Shown here: positions 24,892 through 34,722 of the stretch, piece after piece | Numbering within the stretch: the first letter of the stretch is position 1 | Layout of the letters: every line of letters starts with the position of its first letter | Assembly (NCBI GenBank): GCA_036677365.1 | Contig: JAVBWN010000003.1 | Coordinates: 1 to 64,000, forward strand | Direction: 5' to 3' | DNA: 64,000 bases | From: Acholeplasma sp. | Lineage (GTDB): Bacteria; Bacillota_I; Bacilli_A; Acholeplasmatales; UBA5453 | Notes under the pieces: generated by a model | Told to the model about the DNA's origin: nothing | Databases searched by the model: none | What the model saw: only the letters and a program-made list of their open reading frames with translations | Made by a program: the position numbers and the translations under genes

Positions 24892-24922
24892 TGTGATATA
24901 ATACAGGAGGGAGAACGATATT

Positions 24923-25927
24923 ATGGCGAACATTAAAGGTGTCAATTTGGGTGGTTGGTTTGTCTTAGAAATGTGGATGAGACCTGCATTATTCGAAGGC
25001 TTATCTGGACCAGATGAAACCCACTTTATGCAGCACCACAAAGACCCTCATGGGGCATTAGAAAGACATTACCAAACCTTCATTACGGAAGAAGACTTTA
25101 AGTATTTAAAAGAACATGACGTCAAACAGGTGAGATTACCTGTACCTTGGTGGTTTTTAGGGACTGAACTCTACCACCGTTCAAAAGAACACATCGACCG
25201 GGCATTTGAATATGCGAATCGATATGGCATTCAAATTCTTGTAGATTTACACACCGCCCCAGGGTGTCAAAATGGCTTTGACAATGGTGGTATTACCGGT
25301 GTCATCGACTGGCCAAAAGAAAAAAAGAACATCGATCAAACGATTGAAGTCTTAAAGACATTGACACAACTTTATCATAAGAATGACGCCTTCTTAGGCA
25401 TCCAAGTATTGAATGAACCGCACAGTTCAATCGATATCGATATCATTTTGGATTTTTATGAAAGAAGCTATAAAGCCATTCGTAAAATCACTCAAAAGCT
25501 GATTGTATTCCATGACGCTTTTAGACCAAAACTCGATGTATGGCAAACCTTCTTTAAAAACAAAGTGAATGTGGCTTTCGATTTACACTTATACCACTGT
25601 TTTGACCCTAAAATCTATAATGGCGGTGAACTCAATCATTTGAAGGTCGTCCTTGAAGAACGTCATCAAATGATTCAAGACATCTCTAAATTCGTCAGAG
25701 TCATTGTTGGCGAATGGTCGTTAGGTCTGAAAGAAAATAAAGATGACTATAAAGACGCCTTCTCACACGACATTTTTGTTAGACTATTGGCCGATGCTCA
25801 ACTCTATGTATATAATCAAGCATATGGGTTTTATTTCTGGAGTTATCGAATTGACCGCGAATCTCATTTGAACTGGGATTTTAGACGTATGATTGAAGCG
25901 GAATTGTTACCAAAAAATTATAAATAA
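24923..25927 (+). CDS. GH5 glycoside hydrolase (exo-beta-1,3-glucanase-like)
   Basis: GVNLGGWFVLE.W, VRLPV, DLHTAPG.QNGFDN, NEP, GEWS. Confidence 0.9.
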   Translation: MANIKGVNLGGWFVLEMWMRPALFEGLSGPDETHFMQHHKDPHGALERHYQTFITEEDFKYLKEHDVKQVRLPVPWWFLGTELYHRSKEHIDRAFEYANRYGIQILVDLHTAPGCQNGFDNGGITGVIDWPKEKKNIDQTIEVLKTLTQLYHKNDAFLGIQVLNEPHSSIDIDIILDFYERSYKAIRKITQKLIVFHDAFRPKLDVWQTFFKNKVNVAFDLHLYHCFDPKIYNGGELNHLKVVLEERHQMIQDISKFVRVIVGEWSLGLKENKDDYKDAFSHDIFVRLLADAQLYVYNQAYGFYFWSYRIDRESHLNWDFRRMIEAELLPKNYK

Positions 25928-25941
25928 TAAAGGAGAATCCC

Positions 25942-26247
25942 ATGAAAGCACTGTTTCATATCGATGAGAGACATAAATGGCCGTTATTATCGATGAATAT
26001 CAAAAACCTTCTCCAGGTGAGTCCAGTGATCAACATCGCTGTGATCATCAATTCGGAGGCGGTAGAATTATTCATAAAATCCACCGTGAAGCTTGAACCC
26101 AACGTGAAATATTACTTATGTGAGAACTCTTTAAAAACGAGAAATTTAAACCCAAACGATATCTTGCCTGGCACAGAAATCGTAAAGAGTGGGGTCTATC
26201 AAATTGTCTTACTTCAAAACCAAGGCTATGCTTATATTAAACCGTAA
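25942..26247 (+). CDS. DsrE-family protein
   Basis: LCENSL, SGV..IV.LQ.QGYAYIKP. Confidence 0.8.
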   Translation: MKALFHIDERHKWPLLSMNIKNLLQVSPVINIAVIINSEAVELFIKSTVKLEPNVKYYLCENSLKTRNLNPNDILPGTEIVKSGVYQIVLLQNQGYAYIKP

Positions 26248-26266
26248 AAATCTTACGGTTTTTTTC
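26240..26266 (+). terminator. Intrinsic terminator
   Basis: AACCGTAA-AAATC-TTACGGTT followed by a T-run. Confidence 0.7.
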
Positions 26267-26308
26267 TTGTTGAAATGTTATAATTAAATCAATGGTGAGG
26301 TTAATCCA

Positions 26309-26716
26309 ATGAAAAAAATATATATAATTATGATCTTATTTCTCATAACACTGTCTGGCTGTCAACAAAGTGATTTGATTGTTCGTTACGCTGATAACTT
26401 GAATATCAAACAAGATGGGTTGATTTATCTTGTAGATGCATTTTATGAGAATGGGTCAAATTTGACCTTTAGAATCTCCATAGAAAATACCAACGATGAG
26501 TCACAAACAATCAAACTAGAAAACTTTTTTATCACAAGATTGAGTAATGATGTGGGTTACCCTGTCAATTGTCGAATATTTGATAATGAGGTAACAATAT
26601 CAGCCGAATCAAAACAAAATCTATCGTGTGTGGTTGTTTTACCAACATCGATTGAAGATGAACATTATAAATTAACATTCAACAAGTTTGTTTTTAACTT
26701 GTTTGAAAAGAAGTAA
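26309..26716 (+). CDS. Hypothetical lipoprotein (possible Ig-like fold)
   Basis: Lipobox LSGC; beta-rich sequence. Confidence 0.7.
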   Translation: MKKIYIIMILFLITLSGCQQSDLIVRYADNLNIKQDGLIYLVDAFYENGSNLTFRISIENTNDESQTIKLENFFITRLSNDVGYPVNCRIFDNEVTISAESKQNLSCVVVLPTSIEDEHYKLTFNKFVFNLFEKK

Positions 26717-26756
26717 GAAAGAAGTATTTAAATTTTGCAGTGATTAGGGGAAAACA

Positions 26757-27983
26757 ATGAAAAAAAGTAATGATATTAAAGTGGTTGAGTTATTCGCAGG
26801 TGTTGGCGGATTTAGAGTAGGCTTAGAGCAAGCATCGACAAGATTTAAAACAGTATATGCAAATCAATGGGAACCTGGGAAAAAAAGTGATTATCAATAT
26901 GCGTATAAGTGTTACACATCTCATTTTGGAATTAGTGATAATTACACAAATATTGATATAGGAATCGTCAAAGACTCTATCCCCAAACATGATTTATTAG
27001 TTGGTGGATTTCCGTGTCAAGATTATAGTGTTGCTCATGGAAACAGTGCAAAAGGTATTGAAGGAAAAAAAGGAGTACTTTGGTGGGAAATAAGGGACAT
27101 AGTATCAAACAAAAAACCTAGTTTCATTTTATTAGAGAATGTAGATAGATTGATTAAATCTCCATCAAAACAAAGAGGAAGAGATTTCGGTATCATGTTA
27201 AGGACTCTACATGATGAAGGATACAATGTTGAATGGAGAATAATAAACGCTGCTGATTATGGTGAGGTTCAACGAAGAAGACGTGTATTCATTTTTGCTT
27301 ATAAAACAGATATTTTGGGTTTATTTAATGATTATGACGATTGCAGTTTGTTGCTAAAAAATGGATTCTTTTCGGATATCTTTCCAGTGGATTCTACGTA
27401 TTCAAAAATCAAAGATGTGAAAATAGGAAATAATGAGTTCAAAGATTTAGTTGAAGTATCAGATAACTTCACGTTCGAATTCTTAAATTCAGGAATAATG
27501 AGAAGCGGAAAAATCGTGACAATTGATACAAAACCGATTAAAACACAGAGTATGACTTTATATGATATTCTTGAAAAAAATGGTGTAGATGACAAATATT
27601 TCATCCTGAAAGATTTAGATAAGTTTCACGAATTAAAGGATACAAAAAGAATCCCAAGATTTACACCGGATTTAGAAATCTATTACTATACAGAAGGAAA
27701 AATGAAATTACCTGATCCCATGGATAGACCAGCAAGGACGATATTGACTAGTGAAGCAAAAATAGCACGCACAACTCATGTTGTTATTGATCCATTAACC
27801 AATAGAATGAGATTGTTAACCCCTTTAGAGTGTGAAAGACTAAATGGATTCAAAGACAATTGGACACTAACAGGAATGCCTGAAAGTTATAGATATTTTT
27901 GCATGGGTAATGCTCTTGTAGTACCTCTTGTTACCAAAATGGGAAAAAAAATTATAGAAATGGTGGATAAAAAAGATGAATGA
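26757..27983 (+). CDS. dcm: DNA (cytosine-5)-methyltransferase, M.Sau3AI-like
   Basis: ELFAGVGG (I), GGFPCQDYS (IV), ENV (VI), QRRRR (VIII), MGNA (X); the GKKGVLWWEI and SPSKQRGRDF blocks are typical of the Sau3AI-type subfamily. Confidence 0.95.
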   Translation: MKKSNDIKVVELFAGVGGFRVGLEQASTRFKTVYANQWEPGKKSDYQYAYKCYTSHFGISDNYTNIDIGIVKDSIPKHDLLVGGFPCQDYSVAHGNSAKGIEGKKGVLWWEIRDIVSNKKPSFILLENVDRLIKSPSKQRGRDFGIMLRTLHDEGYNVEWRIINAADYGEVQRRRRVFIFAYKTDILGLFNDYDDCSLLLKNGFFSDIFPVDSTYSKIKDVKIGNNEFKDLVEVSDNFTFEFLNSGIMRSGKIVTIDTKPIKTQSMTLYDILEKNGVDDKYFILKDLDKFHELKDTKRIPRFTPDLEIYYYTEGKMKLPDPMDRPARTILTSEAKIARTTHVVIDPLTNRMRLLTPLECERLNGFKDNWTLTGMPESYRYFCMGNALVVPLVTKMGKKIIEMVDKKDE

Positions 27984-28650
27984 AGTGATTAGAAATGAAA
28001 TAAAAGAAAAAATCCAAGAAATATTTCAACCTTATTATGGATTATCAACAGATTGTATAAAACAAAAATTTCAAATTAAATCTTCAGCAAAGAGCATTAA
28101 CTCTATAATAATTTCTAAAATTTTCGATTTACCATCTCTAGATTTGGAAGTTGTGAAGTACATGAAGGATTACTTTTCTTTTAAGACAGTGTGTATTAAT
28201 GACAAAAATCGTGTTACAGAAAGTATGTCTTTTCCGGCAATAAACTACTACGATATGATAAAAAATGATTGGGAAAATTCAATCACATATAAGTATTTTT
28301 CAAGTAGATTAATTACTATTTTTACATTTAGGAAAAACGAAGATTCTACAATTTTTGAGAATGTTTGTTTCTTAGAGCTTAATTCTGAAGAATTGGTTCA
28401 TATTGGAAATGTATGGAGGAAAGTAAAAGATCTTATAGTTAGTGATTCTTTAGTAATAGGTGGTAAAAACAACACTTCTGTAGAAAATTTCCCTAAGAAA
28501 GATGAAAATCCTATTATTCATGTGAGACCACATGATAACAATACTAGGGAAGGAAAAGTACTTCTTCCCAACGGAAGTAGGATTATCAATTATTGTTTCT
28601 GGTTAAACAACAACTTTATTGAAGAAAAAATCAAGGAGAAACAGTTATGA
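27976..28650 (+). CDS. Single-domain MutH/Sau3AI-family protein (resembles the Sau3AI C-terminal domain)
   Basis: KTV...ESMSFP...WENS, HVRPH, CFWLNNNFI. Only 224 aa, with no clear PD...ExK catalytic motif. Confidence 0.8.
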   Translation: MNEVIRNEIKEKIQEIFQPYYGLSTDCIKQKFQIKSSAKSINSIIISKIFDLPSLDLEVVKYMKDYFSFKTVCINDKNRVTESMSFPAINYYDMIKNDWENSITYKYFSSRLITIFTFRKNEDSTIFENVCFLELNSEELVHIGNVWRKVKDLIVSDSLVIGGKNNTSVENFPKKDENPIIHVRPHDNNTREGKVLLPNGSRIINYCFWLNNNFIEEKIKEKQL

Positions 28651-29924
28651 AGCAAAATATTAATGTTTTAGAATATGCTAATAAAATTGGTAAAGAAGTT
28701 CCTGACTGGTCGACAGATGGCATTCTTCTTGATGTGTATTTAGTGCCAATTAACAAGCTATACTACAACGATGAAAATGGTAGAATTGCTACTTGGATTA
28801 GTGGATATAATGACGACCAAGGGGTAAAACCTTTAGAGGAACTTACTATCAAAGAATATAACGATTTGATTTCTAGCTATATAAAAAAATCAAATTCTAC
28901 ATCATCATTCAAGAAAACATACGACGATATAAAAACAAAAGGTCAAATTAGACCAGGAGTTGTATTAATCGATGGTAGGGTAGTTAGTGGTAATAGAAGA
29001 TTTACAGTATTACGCGATTTGTACGAGGATACATCTGATGACAAATTCAATTACTTTAAATGTTTTATAATTGACAAGGACTTAAATGTTGATGAAAGTA
29101 GAAAGCAAATCAAGACTATTGAAAGGTTAACCCAATTTGGGGTAGATGAGAAGCAAGATTATGATCCAATTGATCGACTAGTGGACATTTACAATGACTT
29201 AATTGGACCAAATAAAATTTGGACTATTGATGAATACCAAAAAAAGTTAAAATTAACAAAATCTGCTGTTTATCAGATGTATTACAAAGCATTAGTAATG
29301 GTAGATTATCTTGAATACATAAATAAACCTGGAAAATTTCACATAGCCAGATATAAAAAGCTTGATGGTCCGTTACAAGAATTAGGCAGGCTTTACAAGG
29401 ATTTAAATAGAAAAGAATGGAATAAGATTCGTATTTATTTTTATTCACAACTACAAAAAAATGGCGATAGGACTCGAGATATCCGGGATTCTATTACAAC
29501 TTACAAAAACAAGACAAACGAATTCTATGATTTATGCAGTCAATTGGAGAAAAGCATTCAAGAAGAAGAAAGAAATCACATAATAAATGAAAGTCAATAT
29601 TCGATTGCAGAAAATGCGGATAGTCAATTATCGTCAGATAGTCAATTATCACCAGATAGTGAAAAACCAATTTTTGATTTAGGCACAACAATTATAGACA
29701 AAGTGTTGACTCCAGAAACAAATAATCAGTTTTTTGATTTAACATTTCAAGCAATTGCAGAGAAAAAAAGAGCAGACAAAATCAAAAAAATTGGTGACTC
29801 CCTTGACAGTTTAATACTTAACATTCAAGATGCTGTTAGTATAGCCAAAGAAGATGAAAAACATATGCTGCTCCTAAAAATAGAAGAATTTATCCGTATA
29901 GTAGCAATCTTTTCTGAAAAGTAA
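28647..29924 (+). CDS. ParB/Srx-like N-terminal domain protein
   Basis: VPINKLYYNDENGRI and GQIRPGVV..DGRVVSGNRR arginine patch; helical C-terminus. Confidence 0.75.
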   Translation: MKQNINVLEYANKIGKEVPDWSTDGILLDVYLVPINKLYYNDENGRIATWISGYNDDQGVKPLEELTIKEYNDLISSYIKKSNSTSSFKKTYDDIKTKGQIRPGVVLIDGRVVSGNRRFTVLRDLYEDTSDDKFNYFKCFIIDKDLNVDESRKQIKTIERLTQFGVDEKQDYDPIDRLVDIYNDLIGPNKIWTIDEYQKKLKLTKSAVYQMYYKALVMVDYLEYINKPGKFHIARYKKLDGPLQELGRLYKDLNRKEWNKIRIYFYSQLQKNGDRTRDIRDSITTYKNKTNEFYDLCSQLEKSIQEEERNHIINESQYSIAENADSQLSSDSQLSPDSEKPIFDLGTTIIDKVLTPETNNQFFDLTFQAIAEKKRADKIKKIGDSLDSLILNIQDAVSIAKEDEKHMLLLKIEEFIRIVAIFSEK

Positions 29925-29929
29925 CGACA

Positions 29930-32506
29930 ATGGAACAATTAAAAATTAAACCTTTCTATAATTCAAAAATAGACAATTTAATAGAGGATTTCTACAATCC
30001 ATTATTATCAAAATGTACTAATTATAAGCGCGTTAGTGCATATTTTGATTCTGCTATAATAGAACATTATTCAAAAGGAATCGAAAACATAGTTAAAAAC
30101 CAGGGGAAGATACAATTCATTTTTTCAGCTGATATATCACGGGAAGATTTTGAAATAATAGTTAATGGTTATCAAGAAAGAGAAAAAATATACGACGATT
30201 TAGCTAATGGTTTAAGTTTTGAAAATACTTTTTATGAAATTTCAAATTTGGCGTATTTGATTAAGTATGGTTATGTTGATATTAAAATTGCGTTCACTAG
30301 AAAAAGTGGGGTTTTTCATGATAAATTTGGACTATTTGAATTAGGAGATAAGACTGTATATTTTCGCGGATCAAATAATGAAACTGTAGCTGCTATTAAG
30401 TCAAATTTTGAATCATTTGAAACCACCGCATCATGGACTGCTGATAACAATGAAATATCAAAACTAATTTTAGCCCAAAAGACATTCAATGATTTATGGA
30501 ATAATGAGTTTGATGATAGTATTTATGTTGTTGATGTTCCAAAGGCTATAAAATTAAAAATCATGACATATGATAAAAACAAACTAATCATTGATTGGCC
30601 ACTCGATTCCAATTGTTTGATAGTTAGTTACGAAAATGATAAATTAATTTTTACAAATAATCTCGAAAACAAAAATTTTCTGTCCAGAGAGTTGACCTTT
30701 TACAAAAAAGTATTATCGAATTACTTGGAGAAAACCGAGAATAACCAATTCTATTTTGATAAGGAATTAACATATGCAGATATTAAATACATTGTCAGTG
30801 AAACTCTTTTGTATGGACAAAATATGGGTTTTATTGTAACATTAATGCCTAACTTAAAAAAATTTCTTCTTGATTACAATATTGTAATAGAAAAGAGACG
30901 TACATTAGGGTTAACAATTAAGTCGAAACATGAAATCCTTCAAAAGGATTTTAATGAGTTTTCTAGAATTGTTAACAAAGAAATGAAACGTGAACTTCGC
31001 TTACCGCAGCTTTGGGATGCTTATCATATGGCAAATATGATGAGAAGTGCTAATTTTTCAGTGCCAGGTTCAGGTAAAACATCTATTGTTTATGGGGCAT
31101 ATGCCTATTTGTCATCTTCAGAGAAAGCTTTAGTCAACAAAATTGTTGTGATTGGACCCTTGAATGCTTTTTCGTCATGGAAAGATGAATTTGACAATTG
31201 TTTTGGTGACAAGAGAAGGTTAAATGTTCTTGATTATCAAAAAATTAAATCACTACCAAAAGCCAATAAATACGACTATGTCGTTTATGAAAGTCAAGAT
31301 TATAACGTGATGCTCTTCAATTATGAAGCAATAAATTCTAACTTAGATATATTAAGAAGGATAATTGACGATAAGACAATTTTGGTTTTTGATGAAGTGC
31401 ACCGTATAAAATCAATTGAAGGTATAAGAGCAAAGGCTGCATTAAGTATCATTGACAAGGCTAAGTACAGAATTGTATTAACGGGTACACCGATGCCAAA
31501 TGGGTTTCCTGATTTACACAACATGTTAAAAATATTATTTTCGGAAGATTATGACAATTATTTTGGATATAGCAGAAGAGCTTTAGAAATTGCTAATCAT
31601 GATAAAAATCAACAAATAGAAATCAAAGAAAAAATCAACCCATTCTATTGTAGAATAACAAAAGAAGATTTAAGAGTACCACCAGCAGAAAAAGATGACA
31701 TTCAAAGTGGTTATATAATCGCAAATAATGATGAAATCAAAATTTTCGAATTGCTATACCGGCATTTTCATAAGAACTTTTTGACATTATACATTAGATT
31801 AATCCAAGCATCGTCAAATCCTGCATTACTGCTAAAAGATATTAACTTGAATGAGCTAGTAATCGATTACCATGAAGATTTTTATAATATAGAATTAGGT
31901 TCAGTTATAACTCGACCTAGTTTAAGCGCAACTGATATAGAATTAATTCAAAAGGTAAAGTATAGTTCTAAATTTCTTAAAGGTATTGAACTAATTGAAT
32001 CGTTAACATCAAAAGGCTCTGTTATAGTGTGGGGTATCTTTATTGACACGATTCATTCCATTAGTGACTTTCTTAATAATCGAAAGATTTCAACAAAGGT
32101 CATAACAGGGAATACTAGTTTAATCGAGAGAGAACGAATATTGTCCGAGTTTAAAAAGGGAGAATTCAATGTTCTAGTCACGAACCCACATACACTTGGC
32201 GAATCAATTTCGTTACACAAGGTATGTCATCAAGCAGTATATTTTGAACTAAGCTACAATCTTGTACACCTATTACAATCGCGAGATAGAATTCATAGAT
32301 TAGGATTAGAAAATAATGAAAAAACCTATTACTATTTTATGTTATTAGATTCTCCGTTTGCCTTATATCCACCGATTGATGTTAGAATCTATAGTAGATT
32401 AAAAGAAAAAGAAAGGCTTCAAAACATGCTTCTACAAAAAGATGAAATATCATTTATTGAGGATGACATCATGCAAGATATCAAAGCTATCATAGGGGAC
32501 TTGTAA
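29930..32506 (+). CDS. PLD-family nuclease fused to SNF2/SF2 helicase
   Basis: SAYF and HDKFG...GSNNET (HxK PLD motif); PGSGKT, DEVH, LTGTP, GESISL, QSRDRIHRLG. Confidence 0.88.
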   Translation: MEQLKIKPFYNSKIDNLIEDFYNPLLSKCTNYKRVSAYFDSAIIEHYSKGIENIVKNQGKIQFIFSADISREDFEIIVNGYQEREKIYDDLANGLSFENTFYEISNLAYLIKYGYVDIKIAFTRKSGVFHDKFGLFELGDKTVYFRGSNNETVAAIKSNFESFETTASWTADNNEISKLILAQKTFNDLWNNEFDDSIYVVDVPKAIKLKIMTYDKNKLIIDWPLDSNCLIVSYENDKLIFTNNLENKNFLSRELTFYKKVLSNYLEKTENNQFYFDKELTYADIKYIVSETLLYGQNMGFIVTLMPNLKKFLLDYNIVIEKRRTLGLTIKSKHEILQKDFNEFSRIVNKEMKRELRLPQLWDAYHMANMMRSANFSVPGSGKTSIVYGAYAYLSSSEKALVNKIVVIGPLNAFSSWKDEFDNCFGDKRRLNVLDYQKIKSLPKANKYDYVVYESQDYNVMLFNYEAINSNLDILRRIIDDKTILVFDEVHRIKSIEGIRAKAALSIIDKAKYRIVLTGTPMPNGFPDLHNMLKILFSEDYDNYFGYSRRALEIANHDKNQQIEIKEKINPFYCRITKEDLRVPPAEKDDIQSGYIIANNDEIKIFELLYRHFHKNFLTLYIRLIQASSNPALLLKDINLNELVIDYHEDFYNIELGSVITRPSLSATDIELIQKVKYSSKFLKGIELIESLTSKGSVIVWGIFIDTIHSISDFLNNRKISTKVITGNTSLIERERILSEFKKGEFNVLVTNPHTLGESISLHKVCHQAVYFELSYNLVHLLQSRDRIHRLGLENNEKTYYYFMLLDSPFALYPPIDVRIYSRLKEKERLQNMLLQKDEISFIEDDIMQDIKAIIGDL

Positions 32507-33276
32507 TGAGATCATTCAGGGTTACATTTTCAGAAGATGAAGAAGAAATTCTAAAGAAAAACTCTATTAGGTTCAATAAAAATGAACGTAACTATCTTTA
32601 CTATGGGAGTAAAAGAAAAATAATTAAAGATTTTGGTGTTCCTATGGAACTTGATTCTGAGGATTTTAAATGGTTTGGTTCTTCATGGAAAAAACTATTC
32701 GAAGATTTTTGTAATCATTTCATAACAATAATACCTGATTTCAAGGTATTGCTTACGATGAACCCAGATTTTTCAAACAAAAAAATATTTTTAAGAGAAA
32801 AAATTACAAATTCAATTGGTCCTTTATCAAATGGTTTATTCATCGATGGTAATAGAAGCCCAACTCACATTTGGTGGTCTATAATCTACTTATCAGAATT
32901 AATAAATAGTGATTATGCTAACAGTTTAATACTATACGTACATTATCCCTCAGCAATTGAACCAAAAGAAATTATTGATATAATTTGGAAAAAAGAAATA
33001 ATAACTCTTCATAATTATCTCAATGCTTACGGTTACAATAGGGAAAAAATTGATTCTGTTATAAATTCGGTACGTAATCTGAATAAAATATATAGAGAAA
33101 AAACAAAGAATTATGTATTTTATTTAATTGATAGAAAACAAGATCTTAGCAATGCCATAAGTTATATCAAGAAAACTAATCTGTATCAACAAAATGCAAG
33201 GGATTTTGATATCTACTTTGAACACATTACTACAATTAAAAGTGAATTATTGTATCCTGATTTTACCTATAGATAA
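32506..33276 (+). CDS. Hypothetical protein, last gene of the island operon
   Basis: TAATG overlap with the helicase gene; same AT-rich codon usage. Confidence 0.75.
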   Translation: MRSFRVTFSEDEEEILKKNSIRFNKNERNYLYYGSKRKIIKDFGVPMELDSEDFKWFGSSWKKLFEDFCNHFITIIPDFKVLLTMNPDFSNKKIFLREKITNSIGPLSNGLFIDGNRSPTHIWWSIIYLSELINSDYANSLILYVHYPSAIEPKEIIDIIWKKEIITLHNYLNAYGYNREKIDSVINSVRNLNKIYREKTKNYVFYLIDRKQDLSNAISYIKKTNLYQQNARDFDIYFEHITTIKSELLYPDFTYR

Positions 33277-33300
33277 GAAGTTCAGGCGAACTTCTTTTTT
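33275..33300 (+). terminator. Intrinsic terminator closing the defence-like operon
   Basis: AAGAAGTTC-AGGC-GAACTTCTT followed by a T-run. Confidence 0.8.
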
Positions 33301-33405
33301 GCTAAATATAAAAAGTTTCACTTGATTAGATAGTGGTTATAAAAACCATATAACTATGTTATAATACCAATGTAAACGCTTTTATTTCGAAGGGAGAAAT
33401 TTAAC

Positions 33406-34488
33406 ATGAATGAATTTAAAGTATTTGAGTACATGGAAAAACACAAGTACGAACAAGTAGTCTATTTCTATGATAGAACTACAGGCTTGAAAGGTATTAC
33501 GGTGATTCATAATACCACATTGGGGCCAGCCCTTGGTGGCACTAGAATCTGGAATTATGAATCAGAAGACGCAGCAGTTATGGACTGCTTAAGACTCGCT
33601 AGAGGGATGACCTATAAAGCTGCAGCTGCAGGTTTAAACCTCGGTGGTGGTAAAACCGTATTGATTGGTGATGCTACTAAAGTAAAGAGCGAAGCGTATT
33701 TCAGAGCATTGGGTAGATATGTACAATCCTTAAATGGTCGTTATATCACCGCTGAAGACGTTAATACCAGCACCAAAGACATGAGTTATGTCCATATGGA
33801 AACAGACTTCGTTGTCGGATTAGAAGGTAAATCAGGGAACCCATCCCCAGTCACTGCTTTAGGTGCCTTATATGGTATCAAAGCATCTTTAAAGTATCGT
33901 TTTGGTAATGAAGACATTTCTAAATACACATTCGCAGTTCAAGGCGCAGGTCAAACGGGTTATTACCTCATCAACCACCTCGTTGAATTAGGTGCGAAAA
34001 AGGTATATTTCTCAGAAATTAACCCTAAATACATTGAAAGAATGAAAAACGAACATCCAGAAGTGGAATTCGTGAACCCAGATCAAATCTATGGCTTGGA
34101 TGTCGATGTATTCGCACCATGCGCATTAGGTGGCGTACTCAACAATCAAACAATCCCACAAATCAAAGCGAAAATCATTGCAGGTACTGCCAATAACGTC
34201 TTACTAGATGAAGATATCCACGGTCCTATGATCAAAGAACGTGGCATTTTATATGCCCCAGACTTTGTCATCAACGCTGGTGGTTTAATCAACGTTTATG
34301 TTGAACTCATGAATTGGCCTCAAGAAAAAGCACTCGCAGACGTTAAATTGATTTATGATCGTCTATTGGAAATCTTTGAAATTTCTAAAGCACAAGACAT
34401 CCATACTCAACAAGCAGCCAAAGTGTTTGCGAAAAACAGAATCGAAACCATTAAAAACTTACACGATAACTATATACCCAAAAGATAA
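33406..34488 (+). CDS. Leu/Phe/Val (branched-chain amino acid) dehydrogenase
   Basis: GPALGGTR, LARGMTYK, GGGK, TAEDV, APCALGG, NAGG. Confidence 0.93.
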   Translation: MNEFKVFEYMEKHKYEQVVYFYDRTTGLKGITVIHNTTLGPALGGTRIWNYESEDAAVMDCLRLARGMTYKAAAAGLNLGGGKTVLIGDATKVKSEAYFRALGRYVQSLNGRYITAEDVNTSTKDMSYVHMETDFVVGLEGKSGNPSPVTALGALYGIKASLKYRFGNEDISKYTFAVQGAGQTGYYLINHLVELGAKKVYFSEINPKYIERMKNEHPEVEFVNPDQIYGLDVDVFAPCALGGVLNNQTIPQIKAKIIAGTANNVLLDEDIHGPMIKERGILYAPDFVINAGGLINVYVELMNWPQEKALADVKLIYDRLLEIFEISKAQDIHTQQAAKVFAKNRIETIKNLHDNYIPKR

Positions 34489-34500
34489 GGAGTGATTCTA

Positions 34501-34722
34501 TTGGCTAAGTATCAACTCGATTTTAACAACGATGCCTGCAAGGGCTGCGAACTGTGCGTCAACAGTTGTCCTGTTAAAATTTTGGGTATGTCCAATACCC
34601 GCATGAATGCCTCTGGTTACGCACTCGTGGATGTATTAGACATCGACAAGTGCATTGGTTGTACATTTTGTGCAATCATTTGTCCAGATTCTGTCATTAA
34701 GGTGGTAAAAAACGATGCCTAA
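34501..34722 (+). CDS. 2x[4Fe-4S] ferredoxin, delta subunit of 2-oxoacid:ferredoxin oxidoreductase
   Basis: CKGCELCVNSCP and CIGCTFCAIICP. Confidence 0.9.
   Translation: MAKYQLDFNNDACKGCELCVNSCPVKILGMSNTRMNASGYALVDVLDIDKCIGCTFCAIICPDSVIKVVKNDA

Follow-up and report, generated by a model that had tools for sequence, protein, structure and literature searches.

A candidate AbiR-like restriction operon carrying a stand-alone Sau3AI C-terminal domain in an Acholeplasma genomic island

What could a cytosine methylase, a homolog of one domain of the restriction enzyme Sau3AI, a ParB-like protein, a nuclease-helicase fusion and a protein without a family name do together when their genes are packed end to end? 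This question is raised by five genes of Acholeplasma sp. (assembly GCA_036677365.1), which lie within a stretch of 64,000 nucleotides (contig JAVBWN010000003.1, positions 1–64,000, forward strand) that we analysed as a whole and call the window. A first-pass annotation, made from the letters of the window and its open reading frames (ORFs), had presented these genes as a candidate undescribed defence system. We consider it probable, with some reserve, that the locus is a member of the AbiR kind that is wired to the methylation of cytosine in GATC, acting as a nucleoside triphosphate (NTP)-dependent, methylation-gated restriction system in which the Sau3AI-derived domain takes the place of the AbiR protein AbiRa as the reader of DNA.

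The five genes were all present, co-oriented on the + strand and tightly packed, in agreement with the first-pass annotation. From the first junction to the last, the neighbouring coding regions overlap by 8 bases, overlap by 4 bases, are separated by 5 bases and overlap by 1 base (TAATG). The domains that had been named for their products, namely a C5 methylase, a Sau3AI/MutH-fold domain, a ParB-like protein, a PLD-SNF2 fusion and an ORF without assignment, held up against matches in Pfam, PADLOC and NCBIfam and against the fold of the gene 3 protein predicted by AlphaFold2.

Gene 1 (26757–27983; 408 amino acids) encodes a C5 cytosine DNA methylase of the Sau3AI/LlaKR2I type. Its product matched Pfam DNA_methylase (E = 3.9e-63) and, over its full length, the PADLOC model MTase_II PDLC03329 (1.4e-152), and the motifs FAGVGG, GFPCQ, ENV, QRRRR and GNA can be seen in its sequence. 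GATC is the site cut by LlaKR2I, Sau3AI and MutH, cytosine methylation blocks Sau3AI, and the partner methylase of DpnIII, a member of the Sau3AI family, produces 5-methylcytosine (5mC) at GATC, as these enzymes are described in PMC4471560. By family membership, the target of the gene 1 methylase would be GATC and its product GAT(5mC).

Gene 2 (27976–28650; 224 amino acids) encodes a homolog of the C-terminal domain of Sau3AI that stands alone; we call it SauC. Its match to NCBIfam NF040973 (Sau3AI) was confined to the second half of the model, positions 238–475 of 475 (3.1e-38), and the score of 131.9 lay below the cut-off of 300. It also matched PDB entry 2reu, the Sau3AI C-domain (1.2e-12), and gave no match to the Pfam MutH family (PF02976). 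Stand-alone SauC proteins are mutually only 24–50% identical, yet they retain 13 invariant residues that are shared with the C-domains of the full-length enzymes (K70, T71, E82, S85, F86, W99, H182, R184, P185, H186, F208, W209 and N211). The position that we take to be the catalytic glutamate, from MutH numbering, is not conserved in the SauC alignment. A homolog of the catalytic N-terminal half of Sau3AI was not found in the genome that carries the window. According to bioRxiv 10.64898/2026.04.21.719898, the C-domain of Sau3AI is a non-catalytic effector, and a first GATC bound there opens the catalytic N-domain. We propose that SauC may act as a reader of both sequence and methylation.

The product of gene 3 (28647–29924; 425 amino acids) had no Pfam match in the library scanned, and we treated a match to TerB (E = 0.002), which lay under the cut-off, as chance. 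In the AlphaFold2 model (pLDDT 84.2), an N-terminal ParB/Srx domain of the NTPase type is followed by a helical domain in the middle and a coiled coil at the C-terminus. The best PDB matches of this model by Foldseek were 5k5d (the top match; ParB-N of a pNOB8-like plasmid), 7bnk (CDP-bound ParB), Noc and KorB. The G115-N116-R117-R118 motif (GNRR), E159 and Q163 are invariant in 18 homologs, and the protein has the combination expected of ParB-type CTPase clamps, a ParB/Srx N-domain with the GxxR nucleotide motif. The predicted fold suggests that it may be an NTP-gated adaptor or clamp.

The product of gene 4 (29930–32506; 858 amino acids) fuses a PLD (HKD) nuclease domain, at residues 2–219, to an SNF2 motor, at residues 380–800. 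Residues 2–216 matched PADLOC PbeA (4.2e-62), and the protein also matched NCBIfam phospholipD_antiphage (4.9e-18), Pfam SNF2-rel_dom (2.8e-19) and Pfam Helicase_C (9.7e-11); a PDB sequence search with the PLD domain alone returned nothing relevant. The motifs of both activities are invariant in 18 orthologs: HxK...GSxN of the nuclease (H130, K132, G147, S148 and N150), Walker A (G380, G382, K383 and T384), DExH (D488, E489 and H491), TGTP (T518–P521) and the arginine motif (Q783, R787 and R790). PLD nucleases with one HKD motif need two chains for one active site. Since the gene 4 protein has only one HKD motif per chain, two of its chains probably must meet. Because the genome lacks the catalytic half of Sau3AI as well as the conserved core of the AbiRa-type protein described below, the PLD domain is the only recognisable nuclease of the system. 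We propose that the gene 4 protein could serve as its translocase-nuclease effector.

How these genes are arranged elsewhere, which the first-pass annotation had named as a check on its proposal, was examined from gene 3. We found 1028 homologs of gene 3 (E ≤ 0.001) in a large protein collection and 326 confirmed places in species-representative genomes of several phyla. The best 80 of the 326 places, anchored on the gene 3 homologs, were used for the counts that follow; because these are the places most like the window's gene, proportions among them are not those of the whole family. We denote the gene 3-type protein as B, the gene 4-type protein as C, and the sigma70/alpha-CTD-like protein that commonly precedes them as A. 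In 76 of the 80 loci, the gene 3 homolog is directly followed by a gene 4 homolog of the same orientation. The remaining four loci comprise a decayed copy in Spiroplasma (L002), two loci at contig ends (L010 and L063) and one locus in which none was found (L035). In Staphylococcus pasteuri (L018), B and C form a single ORF of 1024 amino acids. The PLD domain is present in the gene 4 homologs of 34 loci and absent from those of 43.

An A-position protein is encoded just upstream of the gene 3 homolog in 74 of the 80 loci. Its long forms (about 900 amino acids) have one to three RNA_pol_A_CTD repeats, a Sigma70_r4 helix-turn-helix and, at the C-terminus, a conserved core of about 600 amino acids without a Pfam match; short forms (437–526 amino acids) have only about the last 400 residues of this core. 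Neither the island in which the operon lies nor the rest of its genome has an A core as judged by tblastn, the single match being the alpha-CTD of rpoA on contig C30, and genes 2 and 5 are unrelated to it.

The A-B-C module matches AbiR by its architecture and its context. AbiR of the Lactococcus lactis plasmid pKR223 is described in PMC13064643 as consisting of three genes, which encode a sigma70-like protein (AbiRi/AbiRa), a ParB-like protein with 5K5D as its best PDB match (AbiRii/AbiRb) and a protein with an N-terminal restriction-endonuclease-like domain and a C-terminal Snf2-type ATPase (AbiRiii/AbiRc). The same source, citing Twomey 2000 and Yang 2006, relates that AbiR was first mapped as two loci split by the LlaKR2I restriction-modification (R-M) genes, that it lowers phage DNA replication, and that it depends on the LlaKR2I methylase, in the absence of which it is toxic. 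The window shares with AbiR a ParB-like second protein, for which 5k5d is likewise the top match, a third protein that joins an N-terminal nuclease to an Snf2 motor, and a tie to a GATC-specific system of the Sau3AI family with a C5 methylase. It differs in that its genome lacks the sigma70-like AbiRa and has a stand-alone SauC in its place, in that the methylase gene heads the operon itself, and in that a Sau3AI-type nuclease is missing and a fifth gene is added. Since the conserved B-C module, the sigma70-like first gene and the methylase dependence match AbiR, the word 'undescribed' in the first-pass annotation was too strong: the pair of a ParB-like protein and a nuclease-SNF2 protein is widespread. 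Public records name homologs of gene 3 'ParB/RepB/Spo0J partition protein', and A and B proteins are otherwise recorded as partition or hypothetical proteins; the name AbiR was not found on any homolog in the sources searched.

Several layouts of the module were observed apart from that of the window. Homologs of gene 3 occur on 69 plasmid records, 52 of which are from Enterococcus. One Enterococcus plasmid that we annotated (L105, NZ_CP098027.1, 4342–10017) encodes a sigma-like A protein, a ParB-like protein and a PLD-less helicase, which bear generic names from PGAP. At three loci (L014, 4200–8902; L015; L019), two tandem A-type genes encoding proteins of about 900 and about 660 amino acids precede the ParB-like gene. 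On a conjugative plasmid of Lactococcus lactis (L107, NZ_CP087603.1, 4011–12025), a type III Mod-Res pair is followed, after an overlap, by a ParB-like gene and a gene for a PLD-less helicase; thus, the module also pairs with type III R-M. The locus L046 (2153–13883) and the near-identical L047–L080 encode an Eco57I-like methylase, a ResIII protein of 1127 amino acids, a short A protein, a ParB-like protein, a PLD-less SNF2 protein and GmrSD. Because loci of this type are near-identical in hosts as different as Collinsella, Bifidobacterium, Paraeggerthella, Senegalimassilia, Alistipes and a Ruminococcus bin, recent transfer across phyla is suggested.

The module is repeatedly linked to Sau3AI. 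Sau3AI-type genes are found in 21 of the 80 loci, and homologs of the gene 1 methylase (1e-99 to 1e-171) are present in 21 of these 21 loci and in 0 of the 59 others. In 11 loci, the Sau3AI-family gene is full-length (457–489 amino acids) and lies within a few kilobases of the module, and the gene 1 methylase family accompanies all 11 of them. In L003, a full-length Sau3AI gene stands directly ahead of a short A gene and overlaps it. In L013, the A core and a complete Sau3AI (residues 1–461; NCBIfam, 2.2e-148) form a single protein of 1311 amino acids, and in L039 only the SauC domain is fused to the A core. Seven loci (L001, L011, L022–L025 and L079) have the layout of the window, that is, methylase, a stand-alone SauC of 227–238 amino acids, B and C, without the A core. 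Fragments of Sau3AI-type genes accompany the decayed copy L002. A conjugative plasmid of Lactiplantibacillus plantarum (NZ_CP110243) has a different order, dcm, ParB-like, SNF2, SauC and vsr; its SauC has 247 amino acids and matches the C-half of Sau3AI (3.2e-46) but not the N-half. The series from an adjacent Sau3AI, through a Sau3AI-A fusion and a SauC-A fusion, to a stand-alone SauC is a clear case of the re-use of a restriction-enzyme domain. We found no description of a stand-alone Sau3AI C-domain together with ParB-like and SNF2 proteins in the literature searched, and the variant with SauC for AbiRa, with an in-operon methylase and without a Sau3AI nuclease, appears to be unreported.

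On these grounds, the five proteins could work together as follows. The methylase would convert GATC sites of the host to GAT(5mC). On incoming DNA, SauC would bind GATC that lacks methylation, as this domain does within Sau3AI, and would recruit or license the ParB-like NTPase, an adaptor or clamp that couples the reader to the effector. The PLD-SNF2 protein would then translocate at the expense of ATP and cut the DNA, two chains probably joining to form one active site, and the gene 5 protein would be an accessory DNA-binding protein. A similar division of labour had been proposed in the first-pass annotation, with the methylase marking self, the MutH-fold subunit reading unmarked sites, the ParB-like protein acting as a clamp or adaptor and the PLD-SNF2 protein moving and cutting; it fits the domains and the gene linkage that we found, and its individual steps are conjectured from sequence. 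Our comparisons show how the genes are built and which domains they encode, that the catalytic motifs and the B-C pairing are conserved, that Sau3AI-type genes are linked to the module time and again, and that the island lies in a defence hot spot; the effects of AbiR on phage and its methylase requirement come from the literature. We infer that GATC is the site recognised, that DNA is cleaved, which proteins touch each other and in what order the steps occur. A predicted complex of SauC, the gene 3 protein and residues 1–350 of the gene 4 protein scored 0.00 in a run made without controls, which speaks neither for nor against such contacts. The toxicity reported for AbiR without its methylase is consistent with a methylation-gated model.

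A number of observations weigh against this reading. The equation of the A-B-C module with AbiR would follow from matching architecture and context, not from the pKR223 sequence, and the plasmid collection that we searched contained no Lactococcus plasmid with a Sau3AI-family gene. PADLOC v2 and NCBIfam had no model that matched gene 3 or the A protein, and gene 4 matched no AbiR model of PADLOC, should PADLOC contain one. The first gene, by which AbiR is defined, is absent, and a form with SauC alone might therefore have another mode of action or be impaired. Among 92 scanned neighbouring ORFs (of 109 listed) at 18 loci of the sigma/alpha-CTD type, 0 were DNA methylases, and many were other defence genes; thus, the module in general needs no methylase in cis. 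A quick tree of the B proteins speaks for the reading in that it placed eight SauC-only loci and three Sau3AI-plus-A loci in one well-supported clade, with the window and L001 as sister to L003 and with two changes required for the layout label, but its branches are long and its details unsure. Finally, GATC is the most under-represented 4-base palindrome of the genome (observed/expected 0.46), which we rejected as a sign of activity: the ratios in samples of sister genomes without the island (G005, G008 and G009) were 0.41, 0.47 and 0.58, and that in a genome of the same order was 0.73. Because the island-free sisters are equally depleted, the depletion is a trait of the lineage, not of the locus. 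GGCC is also strongly under-represented in the genus (observed/expected 0.38–0.57, compared with 0.41–0.58 for GATC), whether or not the island is present.

The operon is compact and horizontally acquired. It occupies a low-GC island of about 7 kb (26292–33290) in a variable defence hot spot upstream of a Leu/Glu dehydrogenase gene. The contrast in base composition that had been noted earlier was confirmed: the GC content of the operon genes is 0.27–0.32, against about 0.40 in the flanks and 0.383 in the genome (1.97 Mb), and that across the island is 0.27–0.33. A terminator-like hairpin with a 9-pair stem and a following T run (26239–26261, + strand) belongs to an upstream DsrE-like gene and marks the left edge of the island. 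The terminator that the first-pass annotation had placed at 33275 corresponds to a terminator-like hairpin of 9 pairs on the same strand (33275–33296), which closes the operon; no comparable hairpin lies between the two on the + strand, where only a 5-pair stem was seen at 32638. The sister genome G005 aligns to window positions 24910–26291 and 33291–34618 and has other cargo between them. Because this alignment sets the borders at about 26292 and 33290, a small lipoprotein-like ORF (26309–26716, + strand; 135 amino acids; LPAM_1 at E = 0.0019, under the cut-off), which lies between the upstream terminator and the methylase gene, belongs to the island; it is probably not part of the system.

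We searched 41 related genomes, including nine from the same genus, and the ParB-like gene was found only in the window's own, not in the other 40. The cargo of G005 at the same site (L088, G005:C2 1359–5410) encodes a NERD nuclease and a PLD-helicase-DUF3427-NUDIX protein, which has the architecture of SauUSI, and that of G009 upstream of the same dehydrogenase gene (L087, G009:C2 2483–9846) is a Z1/DUF4420 cluster. The insertion site is thus a holder of restriction-type cargo in two sister species.

The product of gene 5 (32506–33276; 256 amino acids) matched no family in the Pfam, PADLOC and NCBIfam scans. Its AlphaFold2 model is of high confidence (pLDDT 96.1, pTM 0.91), and a Foldseek comparison with the PDB gave nothing below E = 1. 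By VIA-align, residues 50–144 resemble the C-domain of SeqA (Z of 7.6 and 7.2 for the two top entries, the former being 3fmt with a root-mean-square deviation of 2.9 over 92 aligned residues), and residues 150–254 resemble the core-binding domain of Xer/phage integrases (1a0p, Z of 7.0; others lower), such Z values being common for models without a match. Comparison of gene 5 profiles with PDB sequences and Pfam gave chance-level matches only, with no sequence support for either likeness, and the ESM Atlas returned only unnamed clusters for gene 5 and for a short A protein. That gene 5 might substitute for the missing A core was ruled out by hhalign (probability <1%).

Relatives of gene 5 numbered three by a word-based search and 177 representatives by a full profile search (E ≤ 0.001), and an N-terminal HTH_73 domain was present in 6 of the 24 family members scanned. 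Of 399 genomes sampled from the phylum, 10 contain the family; among the 80 loci, it occurs only in L001 and L002. Six of its places were annotated; the genes lie beside a GmrSD-like gene, beside clusters with a D12 (Dam-class) methylase and DUF6339, beside Ssp-like phosphorothioation genes and, in one case, among plain housekeeping genes. In L102 (9694–16419) and L103 (9520–16222), fused forms of the family (about 475 amino acids) head a conserved cluster that also encodes two proteins without assignment (554–640 and about 303 amino acids), DUF6339 and a Dam-class D12 methylase with DUF7226; this cluster may be another uncharacterised modification-linked system. In L104 (1–9963), a fused gene 5-family protein is encoded beside Ssp-like genes (PAPS reductase, DUF4007 and cysteine desulfurase), and a fragment of a gene 4-like PLD-helicase lies at the end of the contig. 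It is plausible that the gene 5 protein, with its predicted two domains, is an accessory DNA-binding protein of modification-linked systems.

Four other explanations of the locus deserve consideration. The one that survives best, although we think it unlikely, is an abortive-infection or addiction module, in which the ParB-like and PLD-SNF2 proteins form a self-directed toxin that is restrained by continuous methylation of GATC. A phage that disturbs methylation, or that floods the cell with unmethylated replicating DNA, would provoke an attack on all DNA, leading to death or to a halt of replication, and the island would be stabilised in its host. The classification of AbiR as Abi, its lowering of phage DNA replication and its toxicity without the methylase (PMC13064643) are what one would expect of such a module, as is the mobile, strain-specific nature of the island. 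However, any R-M system would be equally toxic without its methylase, the presence of a dedicated reader for unmethylated GATC, together with a nuclease fused to a motor, points to unmarked DNA being attacked directly, and the variant contains no separate trigger-sensing domain as judged by Pfam, PADLOC and NCBIfam.

Less likely again is that the operon unites two unrelated neighbours, a decayed remnant of a Sau3AI-type R-M system, left with an orphan methylase and a truncated nuclease gene, and a ParB-SNF2 module that is incomplete and perhaps inactive without A. Defence genes do cluster without a joint function, a full-length Sau3AI lies near the module in the 11 loci described above, the genome lacks the A core, and the Spiroplasma copy is visibly decayed. 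Other observations speak against it. In seven further loci, drawn from different families, a stand-alone SauC ORF of constant length (224–238 amino acids) again stands in this order with overlapping ends and retains the 13 invariant residues; the L. plantarum plasmid has SauC in a second gene order; and L039 and L013 carry the SauC domain fused to the A core. In the window itself, the start and stop codons overlap and the catalytic motifs of genes 1, 3 and 4 are all intact.

SeqA reads methylated GATC, and a resemblance to its C-domain in gene 5 could hint at a type IV-like system that depends on modification: SauC or gene 5 would recognise methylated GATC of foreign DNA, and the methylase would serve some other purpose. 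SauUSI and similar PLD-helicase fusions are type IV enzymes as well, and one such fusion occupies the same site in G005. We regard this as very improbable: with a cognate methylase in the operon, the DNA of the host would itself become the target, gene 4 lacks DUF3427, and the likeness to SeqA has middling Z values without sequence support. In the description given in PMC4471560, moreover, cytosine methylation blocks recognition of the Sau3AI type and does not stimulate it. The least probable explanation is a function in DNA repair or segregation that combines MutH-like strand discrimination, a helicase and a ParB partition protein, since, although public records call gene 3 homologs partition proteins and a vsr gene lies beside the L. 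plantarum version, no ParA or parS context was found, the low-GC island was not found in 40 relatives and its site holds restriction-type cargo in two sisters, a PLD nuclease is present, the catalytic half is missing from SauC, and AbiR, a related system, confers resistance to phage (PMC13064643).

The reading of the locus as a methylation-gated system of the AbiR kind also has to be set against other systems with similar parts. CglI and NgoAVII, which are ATP-dependent type II systems, consist of a C5 methylase, a PLD-family nuclease with a B3 reader domain and a separate SF2 motor. The locus shares this logic of methylase, PLD, reader and SF2 motor, but it has the PLD domain and the motor on one chain, a MutH-fold Sau3AI reader instead of B3, and an added ParB-like protein; no solved NgoAVII chain was among the matches of the PDB sequence searches. 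With the type II systems Sau3AI, LlaKR2I and DpnIII it has in common the methylase family and a GATC-binding effector domain, whereas it lacks the catalytic MutH-like N-half, so that cutting would fall to the PLD-SNF2 protein and would depend on NTP. Class 2 DISARM also combines an SNF2 helicase and a PLD nuclease with a C5 methylase. When the five genes and two ORFs upstream of them were scanned with PADLOC, DrmA and DrmB, the absence of which had been noted in the first-pass annotation, gave no match, and DrmD (4e-9) and DrmMII were matched only weakly and in part. In SauUSI, a type IV enzyme, an SF2 motor likewise follows an N-terminal PLD nuclease on one chain, and a relative was found at the same site in G005. 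Unlike SauUSI, gene 4 has no DUF3427 as judged by Pfam, in scans that did find this domain in proteins of G005 and L012, and it comes with a protecting methylase.

PbeA and the helicases of type-2 BREX-related systems are presented in PMC10853773 and PMC12839542 as HKD-SF2/Snf2 fusions, with CxC-ABC/DndE or with DUF499, an N6 methylase and DUF3780 as their partners. Gene 4 has the HKD-SF2/Snf2 architecture and the PbeA-like N-domain of the PbeABCD/CxC-ABC systems, but the island genes gave no match to a CxC-type ABC ATPase or to DndE in Pfam and PADLOC. It also resembles the HKD-Snf2 helicase of the type-2 BREX-related (DUF499) systems in architecture; the island has no DUF499, N6 methylase or DUF3780 by Pfam, and the methylase of the window is of the C5 type.

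It appears, taken together, that what is known here is the A-B-C module, as a kind of AbiR, and what is new is the variant built on SauC. The phage-resistance phenotype of AbiR has been on record since 2000 without a mechanism, and the module is nevertheless widespread; a 2026 review describes the interplay of the AbiR parts as still unclear (PMC13064643). Tentatively, and with rather less assurance than for the reading of the locus as a whole, we suggest that a type II enzyme has been dismantled here, such that its nuclease-dead allosteric half, SauC, became the specificity subunit of an NTP-driven nuclease composed of a ParB clamp and a PLD-SNF2 protein. If this is true, AbiR and its relatives would be not abortive-infection systems but modular, ATP-dependent restriction machines with swappable readers, which would include the sigma/alpha-CTD protein, Sau3AI, SauC and type III or type IIG partners, and a ParB-family NTPase would act in immunity as a loader or clamp. 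The presence of SauC where AbiRa is expected suggests that proteins of the AbiRa type may be interchangeable sensors of DNA or of a target. As a domain of known function in the position of the sensor, SauC provides a testable model of self and non-self for the methylase requirement of AbiR, and the variant suggests itself as a direct handle on how systems of the AbiR type recognise DNA.

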